This document shows, one piece after another, positions 3,106 to 55,188 of a stretch of 55,188 nucleotides of DNA; position 1 is the stretch's first letter; each line of letters begins with the position of its first letter. The translations under genes were made by a program, and so were the position numbers. Source of the DNA: Thermotogaceae bacterium (GTDB taxonomy: Bacteria; Thermotogota; Thermotogae; B21-G9; HyVt-16); the NCBI GenBank assembly GCA_029981435.1, contig JARRBB010000006.1, forward strand, positions 1 to 55,188. Reading direction: 5' to 3'. The notes under the pieces are model-generated. The model saw only the letters and a list, made by a program, of their open reading frames with translations. It was not told where the DNA came from and searched no databases.

Positions 3106-3918
3106 TTATTGGAATTTCAAACCTATGACGGCTTCTGGTACTACCACATTGAAAGTAAAGGATTCGGTTATGAAAAATTTCAATTTTCTTCCTTCACGGT
3201 CTTCATAACCGATAGATAAATCTTGTCCTAATATTAGTTTGAAATTATCGTCAGCTTTTGAGATCAAAACAGCATCTTCAAGACGAGGAGAAGGTACAAC
3301 CCTTCCACCATTGAGTAAGTCTTCAATCCTTTTATTCAATGGATATCCAGTGCTTTTGGATAAAAGAGTTGCCCACTTCTCGGTATTTATTACAAGATGG
3401 AAAGGACCTTTTATACCATCTTCTGAGAACTTGGCAATAGACTTCAAGATACTTTGAACAAATTTTTCTTCTTCAAGTGAAGAATCGATACTTCTTTTCT
3501 CAGCGAATTTCAACAAACCGGTTATTCCTGCTTTATCGCACCCATAGAAAATAACTTTATCCTCAAACTCTGCTACTTTTGCAGCTGCTTCTTCCAATGA
3601 GGAAAGATCTATATTTTCTTTGCCTCTTTCAACATTATCAAGTTCCCAGATATCTAAAACGAAGGATACTCTAATCTCTATCAAAGGCAAAGATTTTCTC
3701 AATCCCCATTTTACTCTGTCGCCTTCATCAGATAGAATTTGCGTCTCACCTATCGGATGAGCCGAATATTTCCAGCCATAAGGTCCTTCTATTTCAATTA
3801 AACGTCTTCCATACAATTGTGTTGAAAAAATTTCAACAGCTCTTTTATCGATTTCTTCCCATGCTCTAACAGTTATAGGAGCTTTTTCTCTTTTTAAAAA
3901 GTTCACATTATTCACCAC
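3106..3918 (-). CDS. Encapsulin nanocompartment shell protein (family 1, linocin-M18-like, HK97 fold)
   Basis: 270 aa. Colinear, high-identity match to the T. maritima encapsulin sequence as I recall it (…LYGRR…VEGPYGW.Y.AHP.GE…WGLRKSLPLIE.R..F.LD.WELDN.ERGK…GQDLSIGYEDRE…). Confidence 0.93.
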   Translation of the reverse strand: MVNNVNFLKREKAPITVRAWEEIDKRAVEIFSTQLYGRRLIEIEGPYGWKYSAHPIGETQILSDEGDRVKWGLRKSLPLIEIRVSFVLDIWELDNVERGKENIDLSSLEEAAAKVAEFEDKVIFYGCDKAGITGLLKFAEKRSIDSSLEEEKFVQSILKSIAKFSEDGIKGPFHLVINTEKWATLLSKSTGYPLNKRIEDLLNGGRVVPSPRLEDAVLISKADDNFKLILGQDLSIGYEDREGRKLKFFITESFTFNVVVPEAVIGLKFQ

Positions 3919-4261
3919 CTTTCAAATTCCTTATTTTAAGGTCACCGGTTGATTTATTTCCTTCTTCTGACACTATCGCTTCTTCGATATCTGTTATCAG
4001 CTCTTCTGTGAAAAGATATGTTCGTAATGCCTCATCCCAACCAGGCATGTTTCTTCTAAGCCATTCAAGAAGCATTGCAGCATGTTCCATTTCTTCATTT
4101 CTATTATGTTCAACTATTTTTCTAACAGTTTCATCTTTTGTGGATGCCAATCTCTGATGATACCAGTTAACAGCTTCTATTTCTTCCTTAAGACTTTCCA
4201 GTATTCTACTATAGTCACGATCTATTGCTGATAATTCTTCTGCCGGTTCATGATAAGCCAT
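3908..4261 (-). CDS. Ferritin-like protein (Flp) encapsulin cargo with C-terminal targeting peptide
   Basis: 117 aa. Two E..H diiron motifs (EAVNWYHQR, NEEMEHAAML). C-terminal GDLKIRNLKGGE matches the encapsulin cargo-loading peptide consensus (GSLxIGSLKG). 11-nt overlap with the shell gene. Confidence 0.88.
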   Translation of the reverse strand: MAYHEPAEELSAIDRDYSRILESLKEEIEAVNWYHQRLASTKDETVRKIVEHNRNEEMEHAAMLLEWLRRNMPGWDEALRTYLFTEELITDIEEAIVSEEGNKSTGDLKIRNLKGGE

Positions 4262-4400
4262 TCATTTCACCTCCAAAATTAAAATTGTTTGTACAACTAA
4301 ATTATACCATAAAATTAGATTAGTAAAACACTTATTTAAAAACTATTTTTGCGCTGTTGTGATAAAATATCAAATAGGAAAAAAGGAGGTTTGAAAGCGA

Positions 4401-4987
4401 TGGGAAATTTCAACAAATTTTTGATAGTTTTGATAGTAATAATGGCTGCTATAACTGTTTTTCAGATTTTCTGGTCTTTTTCAAGGAGGCCTAATTTTAC
4501 ACAGGTTTATTACAGAGCAACCTATGTTTTTTCAAAAAACAATGAAACAACTATGGATCATATAGCAAGATTTGCTTTTAAAAAATACGAAGATTTTAAA
4601 AAAACTCTCGATAATTTTCAAAACTACTCGAAGGATGAAAAGAAAAAAGCCTATATTGATGTAATGCAGCGCTTATCTAAAGATACCGGTAAAGAAATAC
4701 AGGTTCTCTCTTACAATTCTACTGCTACTGAATATGAAGGTTTACTTCAAATACATGAATTAGGTGTGGTCAAAGGATTTATCAAGCAACTTCAAGATGG
4801 TACAAAAGAAATAAGTCTCGATGACAATGAAATAAACCTGAGTGGAGATTCGAAGATAACTTTCATATTACCTGAAAATTCACAGATTTTTGAAGTCTCA
4901 CCAGAACCCTCTGAACGCAAGGGGAATATCTTAATATGGAATCTGCAAGGAAAAATGAAGTTTCCAAAAGTGGTATACAAAGATTAA
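4401..4987 (+). CDS. Hypothetical membrane-anchored protein (single N-terminal TM helix)
   Basis: AAAGGAGG RBS at ~4382-4390 precedes ATG 4401 (MGNFNKFLIVLIVIMAAITVF…). No recognisable domain. Confidence 0.6.
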
Positions 4988-5733
4988 TCAGAAATTTTGC
5001 AGAAGAATTTATAAGATTTTTGAAAAATTCGAAATATGCAGTTGTTTTAACAGGAGCCGGTGTGAGTACAGATTCTGGAATACCTGATTTCAGAAGTGAA
5101 AATGGTTTATACTCGAAATACAATGTCAACAAGGTCTTTGATGTCGATTATTTCCTGAGAGATCCGAAGTATTTTTATAACTTTGCCAAGGAAGAAATTT
5201 TAAAAATGTTGATGGCCGAACCATCCGCAACACATTATATGCTTGCAAAACTTGAAAAAGAAAGTTTAATCAAAGCAATAATTACTCAAAATATCGATTT
5301 GTTGCATCAAAAAGCAGGTAGTCAAAATGTTATAGAACTTCATGGGAATGTGAGTAAGGCTCATTGTATACAATGCAAAAAAGAATACGATTTTATTGAG
5401 ATTTTGAATGGGCCTCAAAACACCTTTGAATGTAAAACATGTGGAGACCTTATAAAACCAGACATAGTATTCTTTGGAGAAAGTTTACCAGAAAATGAAT
5501 TGAAGAAAGCTCTTTACCTGGTGAATTCTTGTGATTTGATAATTGTTATGGGAAGTTCTCTGGTTGTACATCCAGCAGCTTCTTTACCAATATACGCTAC
5601 TAATAAAGGTGCCAAATTTCTGATAATAAATAGAGGAAAAACAGCGCTGGATAGTATATCTACGAGAAAATATGATTGCAATCTCAACGAGTTTTCCAAG
5701 ACAGTTTTAAATCTTTTGAGCCAGGAAGGATGA
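4936..5733 (+). CDS. cobB: NAD-dependent protein deacylase, Sir2 family (sirtuin)
   Basis: GAGVSTDSGIPDFRS, QNID.LH, and the CxxC…CxxC zinc ribbon (CIQCKK…CKTCGD). Colinear with Sir2Tm. The exact start is uncertain; it overlaps the upstream ORF by ~50 nt. Confidence 0.9.
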   Translation: MESARKNEVSKSGIQRLIRNFAEEFIRFLKNSKYAVVLTGAGVSTDSGIPDFRSENGLYSKYNVNKVFDVDYFLRDPKYFYNFAKEEILKMLMAEPSATHYMLAKLEKESLIKAIITQNIDLLHQKAGSQNVIELHGNVSKAHCIQCKKEYDFIEILNGPQNTFECKTCGDLIKPDIVFFGESLPENELKKALYLVNSCDLIIVMGSSLVVHPAASLPIYATNKGAKFLIINRGKTALDSISTRKYDCNLNEFSKTVLNLLSQEG

Positions 5734-5739
5734 GATTAT

Positions 5740-6330
5740 TTGATCCTATCACTTGTATTATCACTTGTGTCACTATCAGTTAGTTTGTTTGTTTTCATAT
5801 ATTATTTTTTCAATTTCAGGAAACGCTTAAACGAGATAGAATATCCATACGAAGTTGAGGAAAGAATTCTTGAACTTCTTGGAAAGTTCAAGCATGTTGC
5901 TTCTATAAAATTAGAGATGTTAGAAAAGAAAGTTGATGAACTGAAAGGATTAATCAAAGAAGCCAACGATTCCTATGCTTCGTTAAGTGTTTTATTAACC
6001 GATTTGAACAAAATTGCATACGAAATCGATAAGGATTCTAATGTTTCTATCAATCCTGAAAAAGAACAAGAACACAATATTGAACTGAAAGAAAATGAAA
6101 AAAACAGCTCTGAAGTAACTAATAGCAAAAATACTAACGACGTTTCAAGCACAAACAACGATTCCAATGACGTCCCAACTTTTGAAGATGATTCCGAAAG
6201 CCTTGAAAGGAAAATATTACGTCTGAATGAAGAAGGATTTGAAGATTTAGAAATAGCAAGAAAGCTTGGAATAGGTGTTGGAGAAGTAAAGTTAATAATA
6301 GAGCTGTTCAAAAGCCAGAACAAAAATTAA
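5740..6330 (+). CDS. Hypothetical protein: N-terminal TM helix, coiled coil, Ser/Asn-rich linker, C-terminal HTH-like segment
   Basis: 196 aa. C-terminus LERKILRLNEEGFEDLEIARKLGIGVGEVKLIIELF resembles a sigma-70 region-4/LuxR-type HTH. No confident family assignment. Confidence 0.5.
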   Translation: MILSLVLSLVSLSVSLFVFIYYFFNFRKRLNEIEYPYEVEERILELLGKFKHVASIKLEMLEKKVDELKGLIKEANDSYASLSVLLTDLNKIAYEIDKDSNVSINPEKEQEHNIELKENEKNSSEVTNSKNTNDVSSTNNDSNDVPTFEDDSESLERKILRLNEEGFEDLEIARKLGIGVGEVKLIIELFKSQNKN

Positions 6331-48666: not shown

Positions 48667-49422
48667 TCATAATTCCCTACTTAAAGCCTCGAGTTGAGGA
48701 AGATTACTTCCTGTTAACTCTAAGAATAGTTCCTCAAGACTTCCAGAGCCCTTCAACTTTTTGAGTTCATCAAGAGTACCAACGTACAGAAGTTTTCCTC
48801 TATTTATTATTCCAATACGGTCACAGAGTTTTTCGGCTATTTCCATAACGTGTGTTGAGAAAAAAACGGTCTTTCCACTATCAGCATGTTTGCGCATAAG
48901 TTTTTTGAGAATATAAGCTGATTCTGGATCCAGACCTATTATAGGCTCATCAAGTATCCATACGTCAGGCTCGTGAAGTAATGCAGCAATAAGCGTCAAT
49001 TTTTGTCTCATGCCGTGAGAATAAGTAGAAATTGGATCAGTTATCGAACTGGTCAATTTAAAACTTTCAAGAAGTTCGCCTATTCTTTTTGTTCTGAGTT
49101 CATAAGGAACTTCAAACACATCAGCTATGAATTTTAAATAATCTATCCCACGCAGTTTTTCCATTACCAGCGGTTCGTCTGCAACATACCCTATCATTTT
49201 TTTAGCTTTTTCAGGATAAAGATTGATATCAATATCGTTGATTTTTACTGTCCCTTCAGTTGGCTTCAAGAGTCCCACTATCATCTTTATGGTGGTCGTT
49301 TTACCAGCACCGTTAGGTCCGAGAAAACCAAATATTTCACCGTTTTCCACCGTAAGAGTTAGATTTTCCACTGCTCGGGTTGTACCAGAATAAATCTTGG
49401 TTACGTTTTCGAGTGTTATCAT
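48667..49422 (-). CDS. ABC transporter ATP-binding protein (ABC-2 type; YtrE-like)
   Basis: 251 aa; Walker A GPNGAGKTT, LSGG-like SHGMRQK, Walker B ILDEP. Confidence 0.9.
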   Translation of the reverse strand: MITLENVTKIYSGTTRAVENLTLTVENGEIFGFLGPNGAGKTTTIKMIVGLLKPTEGTVKINDIDINLYPEKAKKMIGYVADEPLVMEKLRGIDYLKFIADVFEVPYELRTKRIGELLESFKLTSSITDPISTYSHGMRQKLTLIAALLHEPDVWILDEPIIGLDPESAYILKKLMRKHADSGKTVFFSTHVMEIAEKLCDRIGIINRGKLLYVGTLDELKKLKGSGSLEELFLELTGSNLPQLEALSREL

Positions 49423-49455
49423 TTTATTTTCACCTGCCTGTTATTTAATCTTGTT

Positions 49456-51141
49456 CTATAAATCCCTTTCAAAAAGGTTTCTAACAACTTTTAAAAGAAT
49501 TCTCCAAAGATACACAGAGGAAAAGAAACCTATCAGGATGAGTAACAAAGCCCAGATAGCAGGAGATAGTATCTCTTTTGATAAATATACAAGGTATCCA
49601 ACGCCACCTGTGAAACCGAATACTATGGGTATCGAGAGGGCTACATTTAAATTCTGTTTCATAGCCCTTTGTGGATTGTCCCAATCAAGAACAGGGCGAA
49701 TTCCATCTATTATCATTTGCACCATGTTTAAAAAGTTTGTACAAGCAAACGCTCCAAAGAATATCAATAGTGCTTCAAAAAGATTTATTTTCATCAGTAT
49801 ATAAAGTGCTATTATTGATGATAAAATACCTATTACACTCACACTATTTACATGGATAAACTTCGTTTGAGTGATCAGTTTAACAGATACAGGTAACATT
49901 TTGAGCTCATTCAACAGTTTACCTTCTCTACTGAATGCAGATGAAGCAAGTGTACTCATAGAAGCAGCTAAAGTTGACAAAAGTATTCCAAAAGGCACAA
50001 TGAAATCCCTGTAAGATTCTAGAAAAATCATTATTTGGGTAAATTCTGGTGAATTTTTAAAACCAGCAAACATTATCAGAAGGACTGGAAATATTACCAC
50101 CGATGCAAGACCGTTGAAAGCAAACGATGGAACTTTTAAAAAATATCTCCACTCTCTAACTATCAAAGCTTTTTTCAAACTTGAAACCTTAAGGCCTTTT
50201 TTCAGCTCATCTGGTTTTATTTTCTCTTTTTTCGCATAGAATTCCTGTAATTCTAAGTAGGTTTGATAGTAGAATTTCTCACCGAGAAAAATTGTTAAAT
50301 AAAAGGCTCCAATATTGAAACCAACATACAGAAGAATCCACGAAAATCCCTTAATTCCACTTGAAACAAGCGCTTTAGTGGCTAAGAAGGCCGGAAAATA
50401 TATCGTGGTGAATCTGCTTAAGAATCCATCTGGATTACTCAACAATTTCAAAAACTGTTCTTCAGTATAACCTTCAAAAACCAATCTGTTAGTGTAGCTC
50501 ACAAAAAGAAGAGAAAGAATCAGAACAACAATTCCTGCTAATAAAATCATGAAATCCCTGTTCTTTTTAAACTTTAGAATCCTGGATAGAGGTAATATTA
50601 TTATCATTATTAGCGAAATAGGGAAAATCTGTGACATCGAAAAGACTAATATAGAATTTATCCAGTAGAGTAAATTTGCCTGTGATTTTACACCATAATA
50701 TATCTCAAAAGGTAGCAGCAAGATCACGGAAGCCAGAATTTGAAATATCAATACTTCGGATATTTTACCAAATACAACTTCTTTAGCTTTAATCGGTAGT
50801 GGGAAAAGAACTTCCACATTTTTTGAGAAAAACAGGCTGTTTATCGTTAAGAAAATGCCTGTGAAAAGTCCAAAAAGTCCAGCGAGGGTAACGGAATTCG
50901 CTAAAAACAGATTTTTTATCCCCAGCATTTCATACTGCCTGAAAAGTCCTGATATCAACTTTAAGTACAAGGGACCCACTGAAACAGCAAGAGTAACAAT
51001 CGAAGATAATATCAGAAAAAATTCCCATAATCTTTGTTTTTTTTGAAAATAAAGATAATTTCTGTAGGAAAAACCGTAAGTTGAATCAATCATAATCCAG
51101 GAGATTTTCAACAATCTTTTCAATCCTTTTATTTTTATCAC
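49456..51141 (-). CDS. Large polytopic membrane protein, putative ABC-2 exporter permease
   Basis: 561 aa, >12 predicted hydrophobic helices; sits between two ABC genes. Confidence 0.6.
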   Translation of the reverse strand: MIKIKGLKRLLKISWIMIDSTYGFSYRNYLYFQKKQRLWEFFLILSSIVTLAVSVGPLYLKLISGLFRQYEMLGIKNLFLANSVTLAGLFGLFTGIFLTINSLFFSKNVEVLFPLPIKAKEVVFGKISEVLIFQILASVILLLPFEIYYGVKSQANLLYWINSILVFSMSQIFPISLIMIIILPLSRILKFKKNRDFMILLAGIVVLILSLLFVSYTNRLVFEGYTEEQFLKLLSNPDGFLSRFTTIYFPAFLATKALVSSGIKGFSWILLYVGFNIGAFYLTIFLGEKFYYQTYLELQEFYAKKEKIKPDELKKGLKVSSLKKALIVREWRYFLKVPSFAFNGLASVVIFPVLLIMFAGFKNSPEFTQIMIFLESYRDFIVPFGILLSTLAASMSTLASSAFSREGKLLNELKMLPVSVKLITQTKFIHVNSVSVIGILSSIIALYILMKINLFEALLIFFGAFACTNFLNMVQMIIDGIRPVLDWDNPQRAMKQNLNVALSIPIVFGFTGGVGYLVYLSKEILSPAIWALLLILIGFFSSVYLWRILLKVVRNLFERDL

Positions 51142-51149
51142 CCACCTTT

Positions 51150-51923
51150 TTAAAACTCTCTGTTTTTAAAAATAGAGTAATCAGCAATTATTAGTAAGAT
51201 AGTAACGAAAATCAACCCAAAGGTATAGATCCAGTTGATTCCCTTGTCTAAAATTTGCACACACAGGATATACGGGTATGGATTCAAAAAACTCAAAGAA
51301 TCTATAAGTCCAAGAATGGGCAAACCAATCAATACAACTATACCAGCTATAACAGGTTTCACCTGATCATTGCTGATGATTGAAAACATTAAAAACAGTA
51401 CGAAGAAGAATGTGACACCTACTATTTCACTTAAAAGACAGGGAAACAAATATTTGAAACTTACAGAATAACCAAAAAGTTTCATAGTAAAGAACCCCAT
51501 GATTGATAAAAATATTGTGATCGATAAAAGTACCAATAAACCAGTAATGAACTTTATCTTGAAAACAGTTTTACGTTCTTTTTTTGCAAGTAGAAAATAA
51601 ATAGTTTTCTTTTCGTTTTCCTTGGAAAATATTGGAAAAGCTATCAAAAGTGAAAGCAATGGTAAGAACTGTCCAAAATTTTTTCCATGCCATTGAGTTA
51701 TCAGATAATATTCATCGTCTTTTAGCCGTGTTAATTGCTCTGGAGAACCCATTATTTTTTTAATAAATTCTGGTAATTTTTCAAATTCACTGATCAACTG
51801 ATCAAACATAGTTTCTGTGTAAGGTCTGAGAGCTATCGTTACAACAAGAGACGCGAATAACAACAAGAGAATTATAAGACTCCTTAGCTTCATATCGTTC
51901 AATTCTTTAATAAACATTGTCAT
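51150..51923 (-). CDS. ABC-2 family transporter permease
   Basis: 257 aa, 6 hydrophobic helices. Confidence 0.7.
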   Translation of the reverse strand: MTMFIKELNDMKLRSLIILLLLFASLVVTIALRPYTETMFDQLISEFEKLPEFIKKIMGSPEQLTRLKDDEYYLITQWHGKNFGQFLPLLSLLIAFPIFSKENEKKTIYFLLAKKERKTVFKIKFITGLLVLLSITIFLSIMGFFTMKLFGYSVSFKYLFPCLLSEIVGVTFFFVLFLMFSIISNDQVKPVIAGIVVLIGLPILGLIDSLSFLNPYPYILCVQILDKGINWIYTFGLIFVTILLIIADYSIFKNREF

Positions 51924-52776
51924 ACCCCCTGATTAAAACATTGAAAAATTCCTCTAAATTAACATCTTTTACTTCAGCGTCCTCGATTTCCATCATCTCT
52001 TCCCATTGTTTTTCTTCATTTGATAGTAAGAGAACAACTTCATTTTCTTGCATCACACTGAAGAAATTCTGTAAGTTAATCTCCAGTTTGCTTAGAGTAT
52101 CAACTGGTATGTAGATTACTTTAAATTTTTCTTTTATTTCATCCGTAAACCCTGAATAAAGAATTTTACCCTTGTACATTATAGATACATAGTCAGCTAT
52201 TTTCTCCACCTCTGGAATTATATGGGAAGAATAAAGTATGGTTTTACCGTCAATCACTTTCTGCCTTAAAAGTTCGAGTAAATTCGATCTTTTTATTGGA
52301 TCCAGTCCAGTTGTAGGTTCATCGAATATGTACAAATCAACATCTTGAGCAAGTGCCAGAGTTAGATAAACAGATGTTTTCATTCCATTAGAAAAGGATT
52401 TGATCTTTTTATTCAGAGGGATTTCAAAATATTCTAAAAGTCTGTAAGCCTCTTTTTCGTCGAAATTTTTAAACAGTCTTTTGCACATATTCACAGAACT
52501 TCGGGGAGTGAGGTAATCGTAGAAACTTTTTTCTTCTGGAACGAAGGCAATTCTGTCTCTAACTTTATCTATATTCTCACCTAGAACTTTTATTTCTCCT
52601 TCAAACTTTATTAAACCCAGTATTGACTTTATTGTAGAAGTCTTTCCTGCACCATTGGGTCCCAAAAGTGCGTGTACAAATTGCTCCTTAACAGTTAAAT
52701 CTATACCTCTAATAGCTTGTACACCATTGGAGTACACTTTTTGAAGATTTTTGATACTGATCACTTCTTTTTCCAT
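51907..52776 (-). CDS. ABC transporter ATP-binding protein (YtrB-like)
   Basis: 289 aa; Walker A GPNGAGKTS, signature SNGMKTS, Walker B IFDEP. Confidence 0.9.
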   Translation of the reverse strand: MEKEVISIKNLQKVYSNGVQAIRGIDLTVKEQFVHALLGPNGAGKTSTIKSILGLIKFEGEIKVLGENIDKVRDRIAFVPEEKSFYDYLTPRSSVNMCKRLFKNFDEKEAYRLLEYFEIPLNKKIKSFSNGMKTSVYLTLALAQDVDLYIFDEPTTGLDPIKRSNLLELLRQKVIDGKTILYSSHIIPEVEKIADYVSIMYKGKILYSGFTDEIKEKFKVIYIPVDTLSKLEINLQNFFSVMQENEVVLLLSNEEKQWEEMMEIEDAEVKDVNLEEFFNVLIRGYDNVY

Positions 52777-53135
52777 ATTTCTTTTATCACCTCCATGACC
52801 TCATCAACGTTAAAACCAATTTTTTTCAATCTTATAGCTTCTCCAGAAATTTTTCTTGCAAAATCCTTAAGTATAAGTTCTCTGATCTCAGATTTACCCT
52901 TCAAAACAAGATAACCGATTCCCTGCTTTGCGATTATTATTCCTTCTGATTCAAGAGCTTTATAAGCTCTTACTACAGTGTTTGGATTCACCTTCAAACT
53001 GGATGCAAGTTCTCGTATAGAAGGAAGGATATCTCCCTCTTTTAATACTCCTTTTAAAATTGATTCCTTTATTCCCATTTTTATCTGTTCATTTAAAGAT
53101 AATGGAGAGCGAATGTCGATTTTAAACCACATCAA
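52761..53135 (-). CDS. GntR-family transcriptional regulator, YtrA subfamily
   Basis: 124 aa; wHTH (LPSIRELASSLKVNPNTVVRAYKALESEGII) plus a short C-terminal dimerisation region. Overlaps the downstream ABC gene by 16 nt. Confidence 0.88.
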   Translation of the reverse strand: MMWFKIDIRSPLSLNEQIKMGIKESILKGVLKEGDILPSIRELASSLKVNPNTVVRAYKALESEGIIIAKQGIGYLVLKGKSEIRELILKDFARKISGEAIRLKKIGFNVDEVMEVIKEIWKKK

Positions 53136-53189: not shown

Positions 53190-53218
53190 AATCCAAATAA
53201 AAATGGGACGTATAAATA
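53190..53218 (-). terminator. Intrinsic terminator of the upstream ABC-2 operon
   Basis: AAATGGGACGTAtaaaTACGTCCCATTT; the minus strand is followed by UUUUAUUU. Confidence 0.75.
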
Positions 53219-53232
53219 CGTCCCATTTCTTA

Positions 53233-54069
53233 TTATCCGTTTCTTTTCAAAAGTCCTTTTTTCTTGGCATAATTTTCCATCTTTGAAAACATGTATAGAC
53301 CTGTGGGAAGCAATACAAAACCTAAAATCAAGAGTGGAAGAGTCATGCTCCATAGTTCACCAAGTCGTGCTCCATGTAATATAGATGCCCTCATCCCTTT
53401 CAAAGCATAAGTTGCTGGTGAAAGCTTTGCTATTTGCTGCATCCAATATGGTAAGACTTCGACCTCGTAATAAACACCAGAAAACATCAAAATCAATGCT
53501 TGAACTATGTGAACAACCTGTTCACCCTTTTCAGGACTTATTAAAGGTAAAATAGCGGCCATCATCCCCAATCCTATAAACGAAAAGCTTGCGGCACCAA
53601 GTATTACCAGAGTAGCCCATAAATTCGCTTTTGATAAATCAAGATTGAAAAAGAAAGAGAGTATAAAAAGTATTGCACCACTTCTCAGTATCCCATATAT
53701 TACACTGAAAGCACAGGTACTGAGTAGATGTGTTGCCCTTCTTATAGGTGCCATAAATGTGTATTCTATAGTCTCTTCCCAACGTTCCCATGCAACTGTT
53801 TCAGCAATGACTTCAAATAAAATCGACAAATACCCCCAGAGTATGGAACCTATCAACATGTAAAGTATCAGGTACGAAGTATCAAATTTGGCGTTTCCAA
53901 AACTTTCTATTCCTTTTCCAATGAATCCCATAGTTACACTGTTAGCAACAGTATAAGCGAAGAAAACAAGCTCCCATTTCCAGTATCTTTTAATTAAATT
54001 GAAATTTCTTTCTATGAAAGCCATACTTGCTCGAAATTCTCGTTTCACTTTTCTAAAAATATATTCCAC
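53233..54069 (-). CDS. ABC-2 type transporter permease
   Basis: 278 aa, 6 TM. 15-nt gap to the upstream ATPase gene. Confidence 0.8.
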   Translation of the reverse strand: MEYIFRKVKREFRASMAFIERNFNLIKRYWKWELVFFAYTVANSVTMGFIGKGIESFGNAKFDTSYLILYMLIGSILWGYLSILFEVIAETVAWERWEETIEYTFMAPIRRATHLLSTCAFSVIYGILRSGAILFILSFFFNLDLSKANLWATLVILGAASFSFIGLGMMAAILPLISPEKGEQVVHIVQALILMFSGVYYEVEVLPYWMQQIAKLSPATYALKGMRASILHGARLGELWSMTLPLLILGFVLLPTGLYMFSKMENYAKKKGLLKRNG

Positions 54070-54084
54070 AGTACTTCCCTCCCA

Positions 54085-54888
54085 TCAATTAATAGCTTCT
54101 TCCATCTCCACCTCTTCGAATTTATAACCTGTGAAATACAAAAACACATCTTCGAGTGTGATATTTTTCTTGTGGTTTGCAGCAATGTCTTTAAGTTCCT
54201 GTGGCTTACCTGAGGCAACTATTTTTCCTTTATAAATAATCGCCACTTCGTCACATAATTTTTCAGCTTCAACCATATCATGAGTTGTGAGCAGTATGGT
54301 AGTACCAGCTTTGCGCAAATTAATTATAAATTTCTGAACTTCCAATTTTGCTCTGGGATCAAGTCCTGTGGTTGGTTCGTCTAAAAGAAGTAATCTTGGT
54401 TGTGTTAAAAATGCTCTTATTAAAGCTACTTTTTGTTGCATACCTCTCGAGAAATCTTCAAGAGGTTCATTGAGTCTTTTAATATCCAGCGCCAGCTTCT
54501 GTGCTATTTCGTAGATCCTCTGTTTAGCAACTTTTCGAGAAATACCGTATATTCCAGCCACAAAAAGTAGGTTTTCAATAGCAGAAAGTTTTTTGAAAAA
54601 GCTGGCTTCAGCGGATACGCGATTTATAAACTCTCTAACTTTCAGGTGATCTTTTATGGCATCAAATCCAAATACTTTCACTTTTCCCGTATCTGGTATA
54701 AGCAATGTCGAAATTATTCTTATCAGCGTGGATTTTCCAGAACCGTTCGGACCAAGAACGCCGTAAATCTGTCCTTTCTTAACTTTAAATGAAACATCTT
54801 CAAGAGCCTTCACAACTGTCTTACCTTTTTTGAAAATCTTGCTGATATGTTCAACTTCTAATGCAAAAGAAATTCTTTCTTGATTCAT
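54085..54888 (-). CDS. ABC transporter ATP-binding protein (DrrA/ABC-2 type)
   Basis: 267 aa; Walker A GPNGSGKST, signature SRGMQQK, Walker B LLDEP. RBS GGGGGTGAG. Confidence 0.9.
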   Translation of the reverse strand: MNQERISFALEVEHISKIFKKGKTVVKALEDVSFKVKKGQIYGVLGPNGSGKSTLIRIISTLLIPDTGKVKVFGFDAIKDHLKVREFINRVSAEASFFKKLSAIENLLFVAGIYGISRKVAKQRIYEIAQKLALDIKRLNEPLEDFSRGMQQKVALIRAFLTQPRLLLLDEPTTGLDPRAKLEVQKFIINLRKAGTTILLTTHDMVEAEKLCDEVAIIYKGKIVASGKPQELKDIAANHKKNITLEDVFLYFTGYKFEEVEMEEAIN

Positions 54889-54909
54889 GTCTACTCACCC
54901 CCAAATAAA

Positions 54910-54937
54910 AAGGCCGTGGATAATATCCACGGCCTTC
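54910..54937 (-). terminator. Leader terminator (attenuator) directly upstream of the ABC-2 ATPase RBS
   Basis: Minus-strand RNA AAGGCCGUGGAuauuaUCCACGGCCUUUUUAUUUGG then GGGGGUGAGuagacAUG. Confidence 0.7.
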
Positions 54938-54957
54938 ATTTATAACTGCAAAAATCG

Positions 54958-55065
54958 TCAGCGATTGTGAATCAAAGAAAATCTTCCCGGGCCGTGGACA
55001 GAGCAGAATAACCCCACCGAATTTTCAATGCTTATTGATAAAAGTCTGAATAAAATTCTAAACAC
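54958..55065 (-). CDS. Candidate 35-codon leader peptide ORF overlapping the attenuator (GTG start, RBS AAGGGGG)
   Basis: GTG at 55063-55065 lies 8 nt after AAGGGGG. It encodes (M)FRILFRLLSISIENSVGLFCSVHGPGRFSLIHNR*. The ORF spans attenuator segments A to B and stops ~20 nt before the terminator. Confidence 0.35.
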   Translation of the reverse strand: MFRILFRLLSISIENSVGLFCSVHGPGRFSLIHNR

Positions 55066-55188
55066 TCTGTCCACCCCCTTGATGATTCGTGATTCTGTTA
55101 ACTAAAAGTATTGAAAACTATCAAAAACTTCATTATTCTTAAAATAGGGGACACCCCCCTACAACATCTTGTAAAGGAGGTATCCCAA

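Follow-up and report, generated by a model that had tools for sequence, protein, structure and literature searches.

The closest characterised analogue of the element described here is bmrB-bmrCD of Bacillus subtilis, in which a multidrug ATP-binding cassette (ABC) exporter is subject to ribosome-mediated transcriptional attenuation; read-through is raised by ribosome-targeting antibiotics and by slow codons, while abolishing leader translation lowers expression (PMC4191407). The element in question is a leader situated at the end of a 55,188-nucleotide (nt) stretch of DNA from a Thermotogaceae bacterium (GCA_029981435.1, contig JARRBB010000006.1), the whole of which is referred to as the window, and it probably functions as a ribosome-dependent (leader-peptide) transcription attenuator of a two-gene DrrAB-like ABC-2 exporter operon. 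The likeness to bmrB lies in a short open reading frame (ORF), translated in bmrB, in predicted anti-antiterminator, antiterminator and terminator structures, and in the ABC exporter operon downstream (PMC4191407). The two differ in that the bmrB ORF has 53 codons and contains all three structures, the terminator included (PMC4191407), whereas the window ORF stops approximately 20 nt before the terminator and the window anti-antiterminator encloses the leader Shine-Dalgarno (SD) sequence and start codon. Furthermore, the window element spans several phyla, and no homology to the BmrB peptide is claimed. BmrCD is a heterodimer in which each subunit fuses a membrane domain to an ATPase domain, while the window operon encodes a separate ATPase (PF00005) and ABC-2 permease (PF01061). 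By analogy, the window leader would work like bmrB without being a member of the bmrB-bmrCD system.

The classical trpL, hisL and pheL attenuators follow a 1:2 / 2:3 / 3:4 pairing logic (PMC4191407, PMC2965389). The window leader resembles the trpL type in its four-segment logic, under which an untranslated leader would terminate and an early stall would read through, but differs from it in lacking regulatory codons, in using the SD and start codon, not coding sequence, as segment 1, and in regulating an exporter. The leaders of the ARE-ABCF genes vmlR (PMC9226507) and msrD (PMC10314930) are antibiotic-inducible. As in the window, ARE-ABCF and rRNA-methylase leaders have a short upstream ORF, on which a drug-stalled ribosome remodels the downstream RNA, in several cases by transcription attenuation, yet they regulate ribosome-protection or ribosome-modification genes and encode defined stalling peptides. 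The erm and cat leaders act by unmasking a downstream ribosome-binding site (RBS), whereas the RBS of the window ATPase gene lies outside the hairpin and is not sequestered. In mycobacteria, whiB7 has a conserved upstream ORF and a terminator which turn translation stress into read-through of a resistance regulon. This conversion of translation stress to transcriptional read-through constitutes the likeness to the window leader, from which whiB7 differs in its phylum and in regulating a transcription factor; we know of no sequence or structural similarity between the two.

For efflux and resistance genes, knowledge of leader-peptide attenuators comes mainly from a few examples in Firmicutes and actinobacteria, usually lineage-restricted, while a survey published in 2010 pointed generally to many uncharacterised 'ABC-leaders'. 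The latter survey (PMC2965389) was among the open-access literature searched, in which the present element is not described, although absence there is no proof of novelty. With Rfam, no match was obtained at the gathering score in 16 orthologous loci from four phyla, and at E<=10 no match to the window leader reached half its gathering score, the matches covering the terminator hairpin only; no known riboswitch class had been recognised at first pass either. While the mechanism class is well known, what is new is the family, its spread across phyla together with one transporter, and an anti-antiterminator which encloses the SD.

Organisation of the leader

The leader lies on the minus strand of the window and comprises the following features:

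55078-55072, minus strand: leader SD, GGGGGTG, 6 nt ahead of the GTG start
55074-55065, minus strand: segment A (GTGGACAGAG), 5' arm of the anti-antiterminator
55065-54958, minus strand: leader ORF, GTG start at 55065-55063, 35 codons, stop TGA at 54960-54958
55003-54989, minus strand: segment B (CTCTGTCCACGGCCC), switch segment, covering leader ORF codons 21-26
54936-54926, minus strand: segment C (AAGGCCGTGGA), 5' arm of the terminator or, alternatively, antiterminator with B
54920-54910, minus strand: segment D (TCCACGGCCTT), 3' arm of the terminator
54911-54903, minus strand: U-tract (TTTTTATTT), following D

The region 55088-54889 begins with GAATCATCAA, followed by the SD GGGGGTG, GACAGA, the GTG start, 35 codons and TGA; 20-21 nt further on stands the stem-loop AAGGCCGTGGAT-ATTA-TCCACGGCCTT, then TTTATTT, and the region closes with GGGGGTGA (the SD of the ATPase gene), GTAGAC and the ATPase ATG. 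Segments A and B form a perfect inverted repeat of 10 nt, and the extended A helix (55078-55063) has both the SD and the start codon inside it. The 5' part of B pairs with A and its 3' part with C, and within the entire 55-kb window TCCACGGCC is confined to B and D, with its complement at C. A terminator scan identified a 13-bp stem (54937-54909) with 7 GC pairs and a 3-nt loop, followed by TTATTTGGGG; the stem and U-tract together (54937-54903) lie 14 nt ahead of the ATPase SD. The first-pass annotation of this DNA had proposed the four segments, a 10-bp A:B pairing, a copy of D in the 3' half of B and C:D as an 11-bp terminator. The pairings and the copy were all recovered, the terminator being somewhat longer than supposed; B and D had been placed exactly, while A (given as 55066-55075) and C (given as 54927-54937) exist but were each one base off.

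The GTG-initiated 35-codon ORF with its RBS, also proposed at first pass, is present and reads through B, stopping short of the terminator stem by the above 20-21 nt; its peptide is MFRILFRLLSISIENSVGLFCSVHGPGRFSLIHNR. A mechanical ORF call starts farther upstream, at an in-frame GTG at 55074, and the 35-codon reading is preferred since the SD at 55078-55072 fits the 55065 start only. The leader SD is almost the same as the ATPase SD (54902-54895). Similarly, the ATPase RBS region GGGGGTGAGTAGAC (54889-54902) closely resembles segment A with the SD, GGGGGTGGACAGAG (55065-55078). When A is masked in the folds described below, part of the B region pairs with this ATPase RBS region, which might, if the modelled pairing holds, add a translational layer.

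Folding of the leader RNA

The minimum free energy (MFE) structure of the 212-nt leader consists of A:B together with C:D (-70.3 kcal/mol, z = -5.25), and 0 of 200 shuffled sequences were as stable. In the window leader, A:B has an energy of -29.5 kcal/mol, matched by 0 of 300 dinucleotide shuffles, and B:C (11 bp, -22.0 kcal/mol) beats 300 of 300; the best partner of A and the best partner of C overlap by 13 nt. Constrained folds were run at 37, 55 and 70 °C, with the same outcome at each temperature. When A is free, nascent RNA forms A:B and leaves C unpaired; when A is masked, nascent RNA extending to 54921 (the terminator loop) forms B:C; and when B is masked, or the RNA is full-length, the terminator forms. 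The alternative structures which the first-pass annotation had expected folding to reveal were obtained. Hairpin and U-tract both lie 5' of the ATPase SD (54902-54895) and ATG, which remain unpaired in the MFE and centroid folds alike.

Conservation of the layout in related leaders

Related loci were gathered by a genome-collection scan and by exact-protein look-ups, and the DNA upstream of the ATPase gene was read. The scan matches listed left out several Thermotogota genera, which were partly recovered by the look-ups; Pseudothermotoga thermarum (P0038) was not included. Curation yielded 27 independent leaders, belonging to orthologous ATPase and permease pairs from Thermotogota, Chloroflexota and Firmicute metagenome-assembled genomes (MAGs). 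Among the fetched loci, the same layout, with a GC-rich terminator, was observed in nearly every Thermotogota locus, in many Chloroflexota loci and in several Firmicute MAGs, with strong sigma-70-type promoters 26-42 nt before the leader start in most lineages. An SD-like site is located 5-10 nt ahead of the leader start in 27/27 leaders, and all 27 have an ORF of 19-35 codons whose stop lies 9-26 nt before an intrinsic terminator, compared with approximately 6% per leader in shuffles, a contrast which is somewhat inflated since the ORFs were picked with an SD filter and a pre-terminator search window. In every lineage, the SD and start codon fall within segment A. The surrounding genes are different in each lineage, indicating that the leader travels with the transporter pair. 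The A-B loop measures 40-60 nt and is not conserved even between the two closest relatives; the B/C core nucleotides YCACGSC / GSCGUGR are kept across phyla whatever the reading frame. Chloroflexota leaders share the ORF geometry, a GCCGTGG terminator arm and a CTCACGSC B-like core, and the Chloroflexota and Firmicute MAG versions are apparently homologous to the Thermotogota leaders.

Conservation of the encoded peptide is far more limited. Between the window and its closest relative, L089, 12/35 residues are identical (counted by eye), despite segments A, B, C and D being almost identical. The conserved nucleotides of B are read in different frames by different clades (L010 versus L020), and in L037 a 1-nt shift alters the peptide while the position of the stop codon is kept. 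Additionally, whether a VGL(V/F)(C/Y) motif has Cys or Tyr corresponds to whether G or A pairs with the start-codon U. Some residual peptide conservation may exist, as in the Chloroflexota LPCRSAP motif, with synonymous third-position changes, and in the frequent M-F-(R/K) N-termini. Searches of 10 leader peptides against Pfam and NCBIfam returned nothing credible, and inspection by eye of codons 1 to ~17 in the 27 leaders showed no run or enrichment of any single amino acid. That the ORF is kept while the peptide diverges and frames shift argues against a functional small protein, and such conservation of the ORF as an object would be expected of a ribosome-position sensor. Gene-called small ORFs upstream of the transporters in L094-L099 (30-41 amino acids) include the leader ORF (the 30-residue call in L094/L095 and the 35-residue call in L098/L099) or adjoin it; these calls are therefore probably regulatory rather than protein genes, and their annotation would be corrected accordingly.

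Several variations on the layout were observed. In many Thermotogota lineages, represented by L009-L014, L094-L100 and L103 and including some with a Kosmotogaceae label, the leader terminator and the ATPase start are 160-420 nt apart, and the space between holds one to three extra SD-preceded ORFs of ~20-41 codons, mostly hydrophilic. The window clade is without such extra ORFs, its terminator being ~20 nt from the ATG. The Chloroflexota loci L020, L024, L031, L035, L037, L039 and L042 carry two tandem terminators 50-60 nt apart with nearly the same 5' arm (RGCCGTGGGC), and their leader peptides end in ...LPCRSAP(H/R/V/I)..., an ending which we take to bear a loose resemblance to arrest motifs of the RAPP/RAGP type. 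An extra hairpin over the leader stop codon was seen in L020, L031, L102, L079 and L089; it is not generally significant and is not claimed as part of the element. In P. thermarum, the ATPase is called as 281 amino acids with its start 16 nt from a divergent HD-domain gene, the leader being either absent or swallowed by the gene call.

Pairing statistics and covariation

In 26/27 leaders, the SD/start region and the terminator 5' arm plus loop find their optimal partners in overlapping stretches of the ORF, compared with 51% in dinucleotide shuffles. Measured against shuffles, A:B reached p<=0.05 in 19/27 leaders, as did B:C (19/27), and the joint A:B and B:C statistic reached p<=0.01 in 20/27. 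When partners were swapped between loci, the observed summed energy was reached in 0/20,000 permutations for either helix, a figure which kinship among the leaders inflates somewhat; that swapped SD regions and terminators never match the observed energy indicates that the partners co-vary.

Individual compensatory changes were also identified. For A:B, GACAGAG/CTCTGTC in the window corresponds to GACAGGG/CCCTGTC in L089 (A-U to G-C). For B:C, a U-A pair in L025 versus C-G in L032 is accompanied by two further compensatory pairs in the L016/L102/L093 group. None of the 46 B:C pairs in the Thermotogota and Firmicute groups L001/L089, L025/L032, L010/L011/L009 and L054/L079 is broken, while 3/13 pairs are broken or gapped in the L016/L102/L093 group. 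The terminator covaries at 11/12 pair positions among 17 Thermotogota leaders. RNAalifold applied to a 17-sequence MAFFT alignment recovered the terminator only, and neither A:B nor B:C. From clade to clade, the pairing register of A:B and of B:C moves by several alignment columns, which renders column-based pair counting unusable, and register-free duplex, shuffle and partner-swap tests together with sister-group alignments were used in its place. The first-pass annotation had staked its reading on homologous leaders keeping both the short ORF and the A/B/C/D complementarity; both are kept, with compensatory substitutions.

Proposed mechanism and alternative explanations

The leader has an intrinsic terminator ahead of the gene, mutually exclusive helices which share B, and an RBS-bearing ORF running through B, as do attenuators of this class, and the homologous leaders support the initial reading of a terminator, antiterminator and anti-antiterminator with an overlapping ORF. 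From these segments, their conservation and covariation and the observed fold preferences, we infer in what order events take place, that translation is required and what kind of inducer acts, as follows. Transcription would start ~25 nt ahead of the 35-codon leader ORF. Without a ribosome, A would pair with B as soon as B is made, C would pair with D, and polymerase would stop at 54911-54903; without translation the leader would lock itself off, its own SD and start codon being contained in A. By the time C emerges, a ribosome keeping pace with polymerase would have reached B, or the stop codon between B and C, so that C:D forms and transcription terminates, the stop codon (9-26 nt from the terminator) being far enough away to leave the terminator undisturbed. 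If the ribosome were still within approximately the first 15 codons, A would be masked or A:B sterically blocked and B left bare, and bare B would capture C before D is transcribed, so that no terminator forms and the exporter genes are transcribed. The predicted logic is accordingly off without translation, off with coupled translation, and on with a lagging or stalled pioneer ribosome. The A-B loop corresponds to about one ribosome footprint plus short flanks, for which reason a ribosome in codons ~1-15 would hold A:B open and B bare.

The first-pass annotation had speculated on a drug- or peptide-dependent stall in codons 3-17, which is putative; judged from sequence, stalling or lagging at any point in codons ~1-15 would suit this geometry, and the sequence points to no specific inducer. 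The most plausible natural trigger is a translation-inhibiting compound, which would fit a transporter of the drug-exporter type. A more specific proposal is that leader and exporter constitute an ancient co-inherited module of Thermotogota, Chloroflexota and some Bacillota in which the nascent chain is an arrest peptide sensing the exporter's substrate in the ribosomal tunnel, in the manner of TnaC, SpeFL and ErmCL; the recurrent ...G-L-(V/F)-(C/Y)-x-x-x-P / LPCRSAP motif and the frequent M-F-(R/K) N-termini would suit it, but we consider it doubtful.

A number of observations weigh against ribosome-dependent attenuation. Full-length RNA with A masked still favours the terminator thermodynamically, and antitermination must consequently be kinetic. 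In about one third of the leaders, the distance from the end of B to the stop codon exceeds 18 nt (it is 21 nt in the window), from which it follows that a terminating ribosome would leave B uncovered. The GC-rich Chloroflexota leaders are individually weak in shuffles, with L020, L035 and L081 not significant, and the manner in which the ORFs were picked, as noted above, bears on the geometry statistic. No conserved regulatory codons or known arrest motif indicating a particular signal were found in the leaders, and the window copy is without a recognisable promoter (see below), and its expression in this strain may be low or silenced.

The conservation data also bear on whether the ORF participates at all. 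If the helices were real but a small molecule or an RNA-binding protein threw the switch, the ORF would be incidental, and both the retention of the B/C core across phyla regardless of frame (L010 versus L020; the L037 shift) and the poor conservation of the peptide (12/35 between the window and L089) would be in keeping with this. We nevertheless regard such a switch as unlikely: the A-B loop, its sole room for an aptamer, is unconserved between the two closest relatives, no Rfam match was found, A always contains the SD and start codon, and an SD, a start and an ORF ending 9-26 nt before the terminator in 27/27 leaders are hard to explain without translation. At the other extreme, the ORF could be a genuine small-peptide gene (exported and bacteriocin-like, or a transporter accessory) with a leaky terminator setting the peptide:transporter ratio, as in operons for ribosomally synthesised and post-translationally modified peptides. 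Beyond a C-terminal motif, however, the peptides have diverged widely, several being hydrophilic; neither Pfam nor NCBIfam gave a match, no modification enzymes are located nearby and the neighbourhood differs in every lineage; the Cys/Tyr alternation follows base pairing with the start-codon U, and the covariation of both the SD/start region and the terminator arm with one ORF segment would be left unexplained. This explanation is thus distinctly improbable, even with an exporter directly downstream and a recurrent C-terminal motif (VGL(V/F)C.V in Thermotogota, LPCRSAP in Chloroflexota) showing synonymous third-position changes.

Two further explanations retain the regulatory role of the leader and alter what it senses. 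In all lineages A:B encloses the SD and start codon, and the fold is predicted to lose stability on warming, from -67.8 kcal/mol at 37 °C to -21.6 kcal/mol at 70 °C, as might be anticipated if melting of A:B, in the manner of an RNA thermometer, and not ribosome lag, were decisive. A:B remains the MFE pairing at 70 °C, however, and a melted A:B would free B yet permit normal translation, which the geometry predicts to terminate, so that a temperature or initiation gate is very unlikely. Sensing of an amino acid, as in trp, his or leu attenuators, would make use of the same four-segment architecture with a leader ORF, but the first ~17 codons of the 27 leaders lack any amino-acid run or enrichment (by eye) and the regulated genes encode an exporter rather than a biosynthetic or aminoacyl-tRNA pathway; it is extremely improbable. 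Attenuation relieved by a lagging or stalled ribosome is retained as the probable function of the leader.

The upstream region of the window copy

The ATPase protein is encoded on many metagenome contigs, and eight contigs of the same species were compared with the window. The leader from GAATCATC to the ATG is identical in all of them, while upstream of ~55089 the window is unrelated to the eight contigs:

55089-55188, no strand assigned: strain-specific sequence which replaces the native leader promoter, outside the conserved element

The same-species contigs have a TG-extended promoter, TTGAAC-17-TAAAGT, whose end is 32 nt upstream of the leader start, and those with upstream sequence (L001-L005) have BioY 800 nt farther up. 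C:D was considered as the terminator of an upstream gene, a possibility ruled out since BioY ends 800 nt away with a promoter directly before the leader, and since other lineages have a divergent or an unrelated gene in that position. In the window, no acceptable minus-strand promoter was detected for the leader. The TTGATA-type promoter proposed at first pass (55090-55125) falls in the strain-specific stretch, which is absent from the eight contigs with their good promoter, and this part of the annotation found no support; the window copy may be cut off from its native promoter.

Within this strain-specific module of ~100 nt lie a promoter-like site on the plus strand (TTGAAA-17-TATTCT), a GGGGACACCCC hairpin and, at the window end, an AAGGAGG RBS that faces outward. 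On an unrelated metagenome contig (L104, 5270-5350), a module resembling it precedes an SBP_bac_5-like solute-binding-protein gene. When the terminal 100 nt were looked for as a repeat or insertion sequence end, the window gave a single copy and the fetched loci gave none; in view of the L104 module, they may rather be a promoter-region module. The divergence at the 5' edge of the leader, for which the stretch to compare in L001 is 5700-5800, could stem from rearrangement, from a mobile promoter module or from chimeric assembly. Additionally, the same-species contig L006 (~100-125) breaks from the others ~180 nt upstream of the leader (…CATTGGCCAGGGT|GTCTGTCTTATAGAAGG) and contigs L007 and L008 end <=80 nt from it, which together suggest an intergenic hotspot for rearrangement or assembly breaks.

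The regulated operon and its neighbours

The operon downstream of the leader comprises two genes, both of which had been assigned these boundaries in the first-pass annotation:

54085-54888, minus strand: ABC ATPase gene, ATG at 54888, RBS at 54902-54895, 267 amino acids, PF00005, DrrA-like
53233-54069, minus strand: ABC-2 permease gene, 278 amino acids, PF01061 and PF12698, second and last gene of the operon
53199-53230, minus strand: strong intrinsic terminator directly after the permease stop, ending the two-gene operon

The ATPase scored 251.6 bits against NCBIfam TIGR01188 (drrA), under the cutoff of 312.45, and the permease matched NCBIfam drrB weakly (43.7 bits, under the cutoff of 223). 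DrrA and DrrB would accordingly be the best-matching named subfamilies, with both scores falling short of curated DrrAB membership. A PDB sequence search with the permease gave no match. Permease orthologues are 60-83% identical across Thermotogota and ~50% identical in Chloroflexota and other phyla.

Beyond the operon terminator, a new promoter (TTGATT-17-TATAGT) serves a GntR/ABC cluster at 48667-53135 (minus strand). This begins with a YtrA-like GntR regulator (52761-53135), which has its own promoter and overlaps an ABC ATPase gene, followed by ABC2_membrane_2, ABC_tran_2 and another ATPase gene; it is a separate ytr-like transporter cluster outside the attenuated operon. In L096/L097, an ABC-F-type protein (two ABC_tran domains and ABC_tran_Xtn) is encoded directly after the permease (3599-5425), and this neighbour in one lineage gives a weak hint of a link to ribosome-targeting compounds.

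Implications

The leaders constitute a well-supported, uncatalogued family tied to one DrrAB-like ABC-2 exporter and kept through deep Thermotogota divergence. Their design is compact, as the RBS of the sensor ORF is itself part of the switch, and the pioneer ribosome alone would be read. The ~27 natural variants, thermophilic ones included, may be used for the study of attenuation kinetics. Should the arrest-peptide proposal be true, the family would represent a cross-phylum peptide-based small-molecule sensor rather than a generic sensor of translation lag. For the widespread transporter itself, the leader provides a hypothesis as to its role, namely that it may serve in the response to translation stress or to ribosome-targeting compounds.

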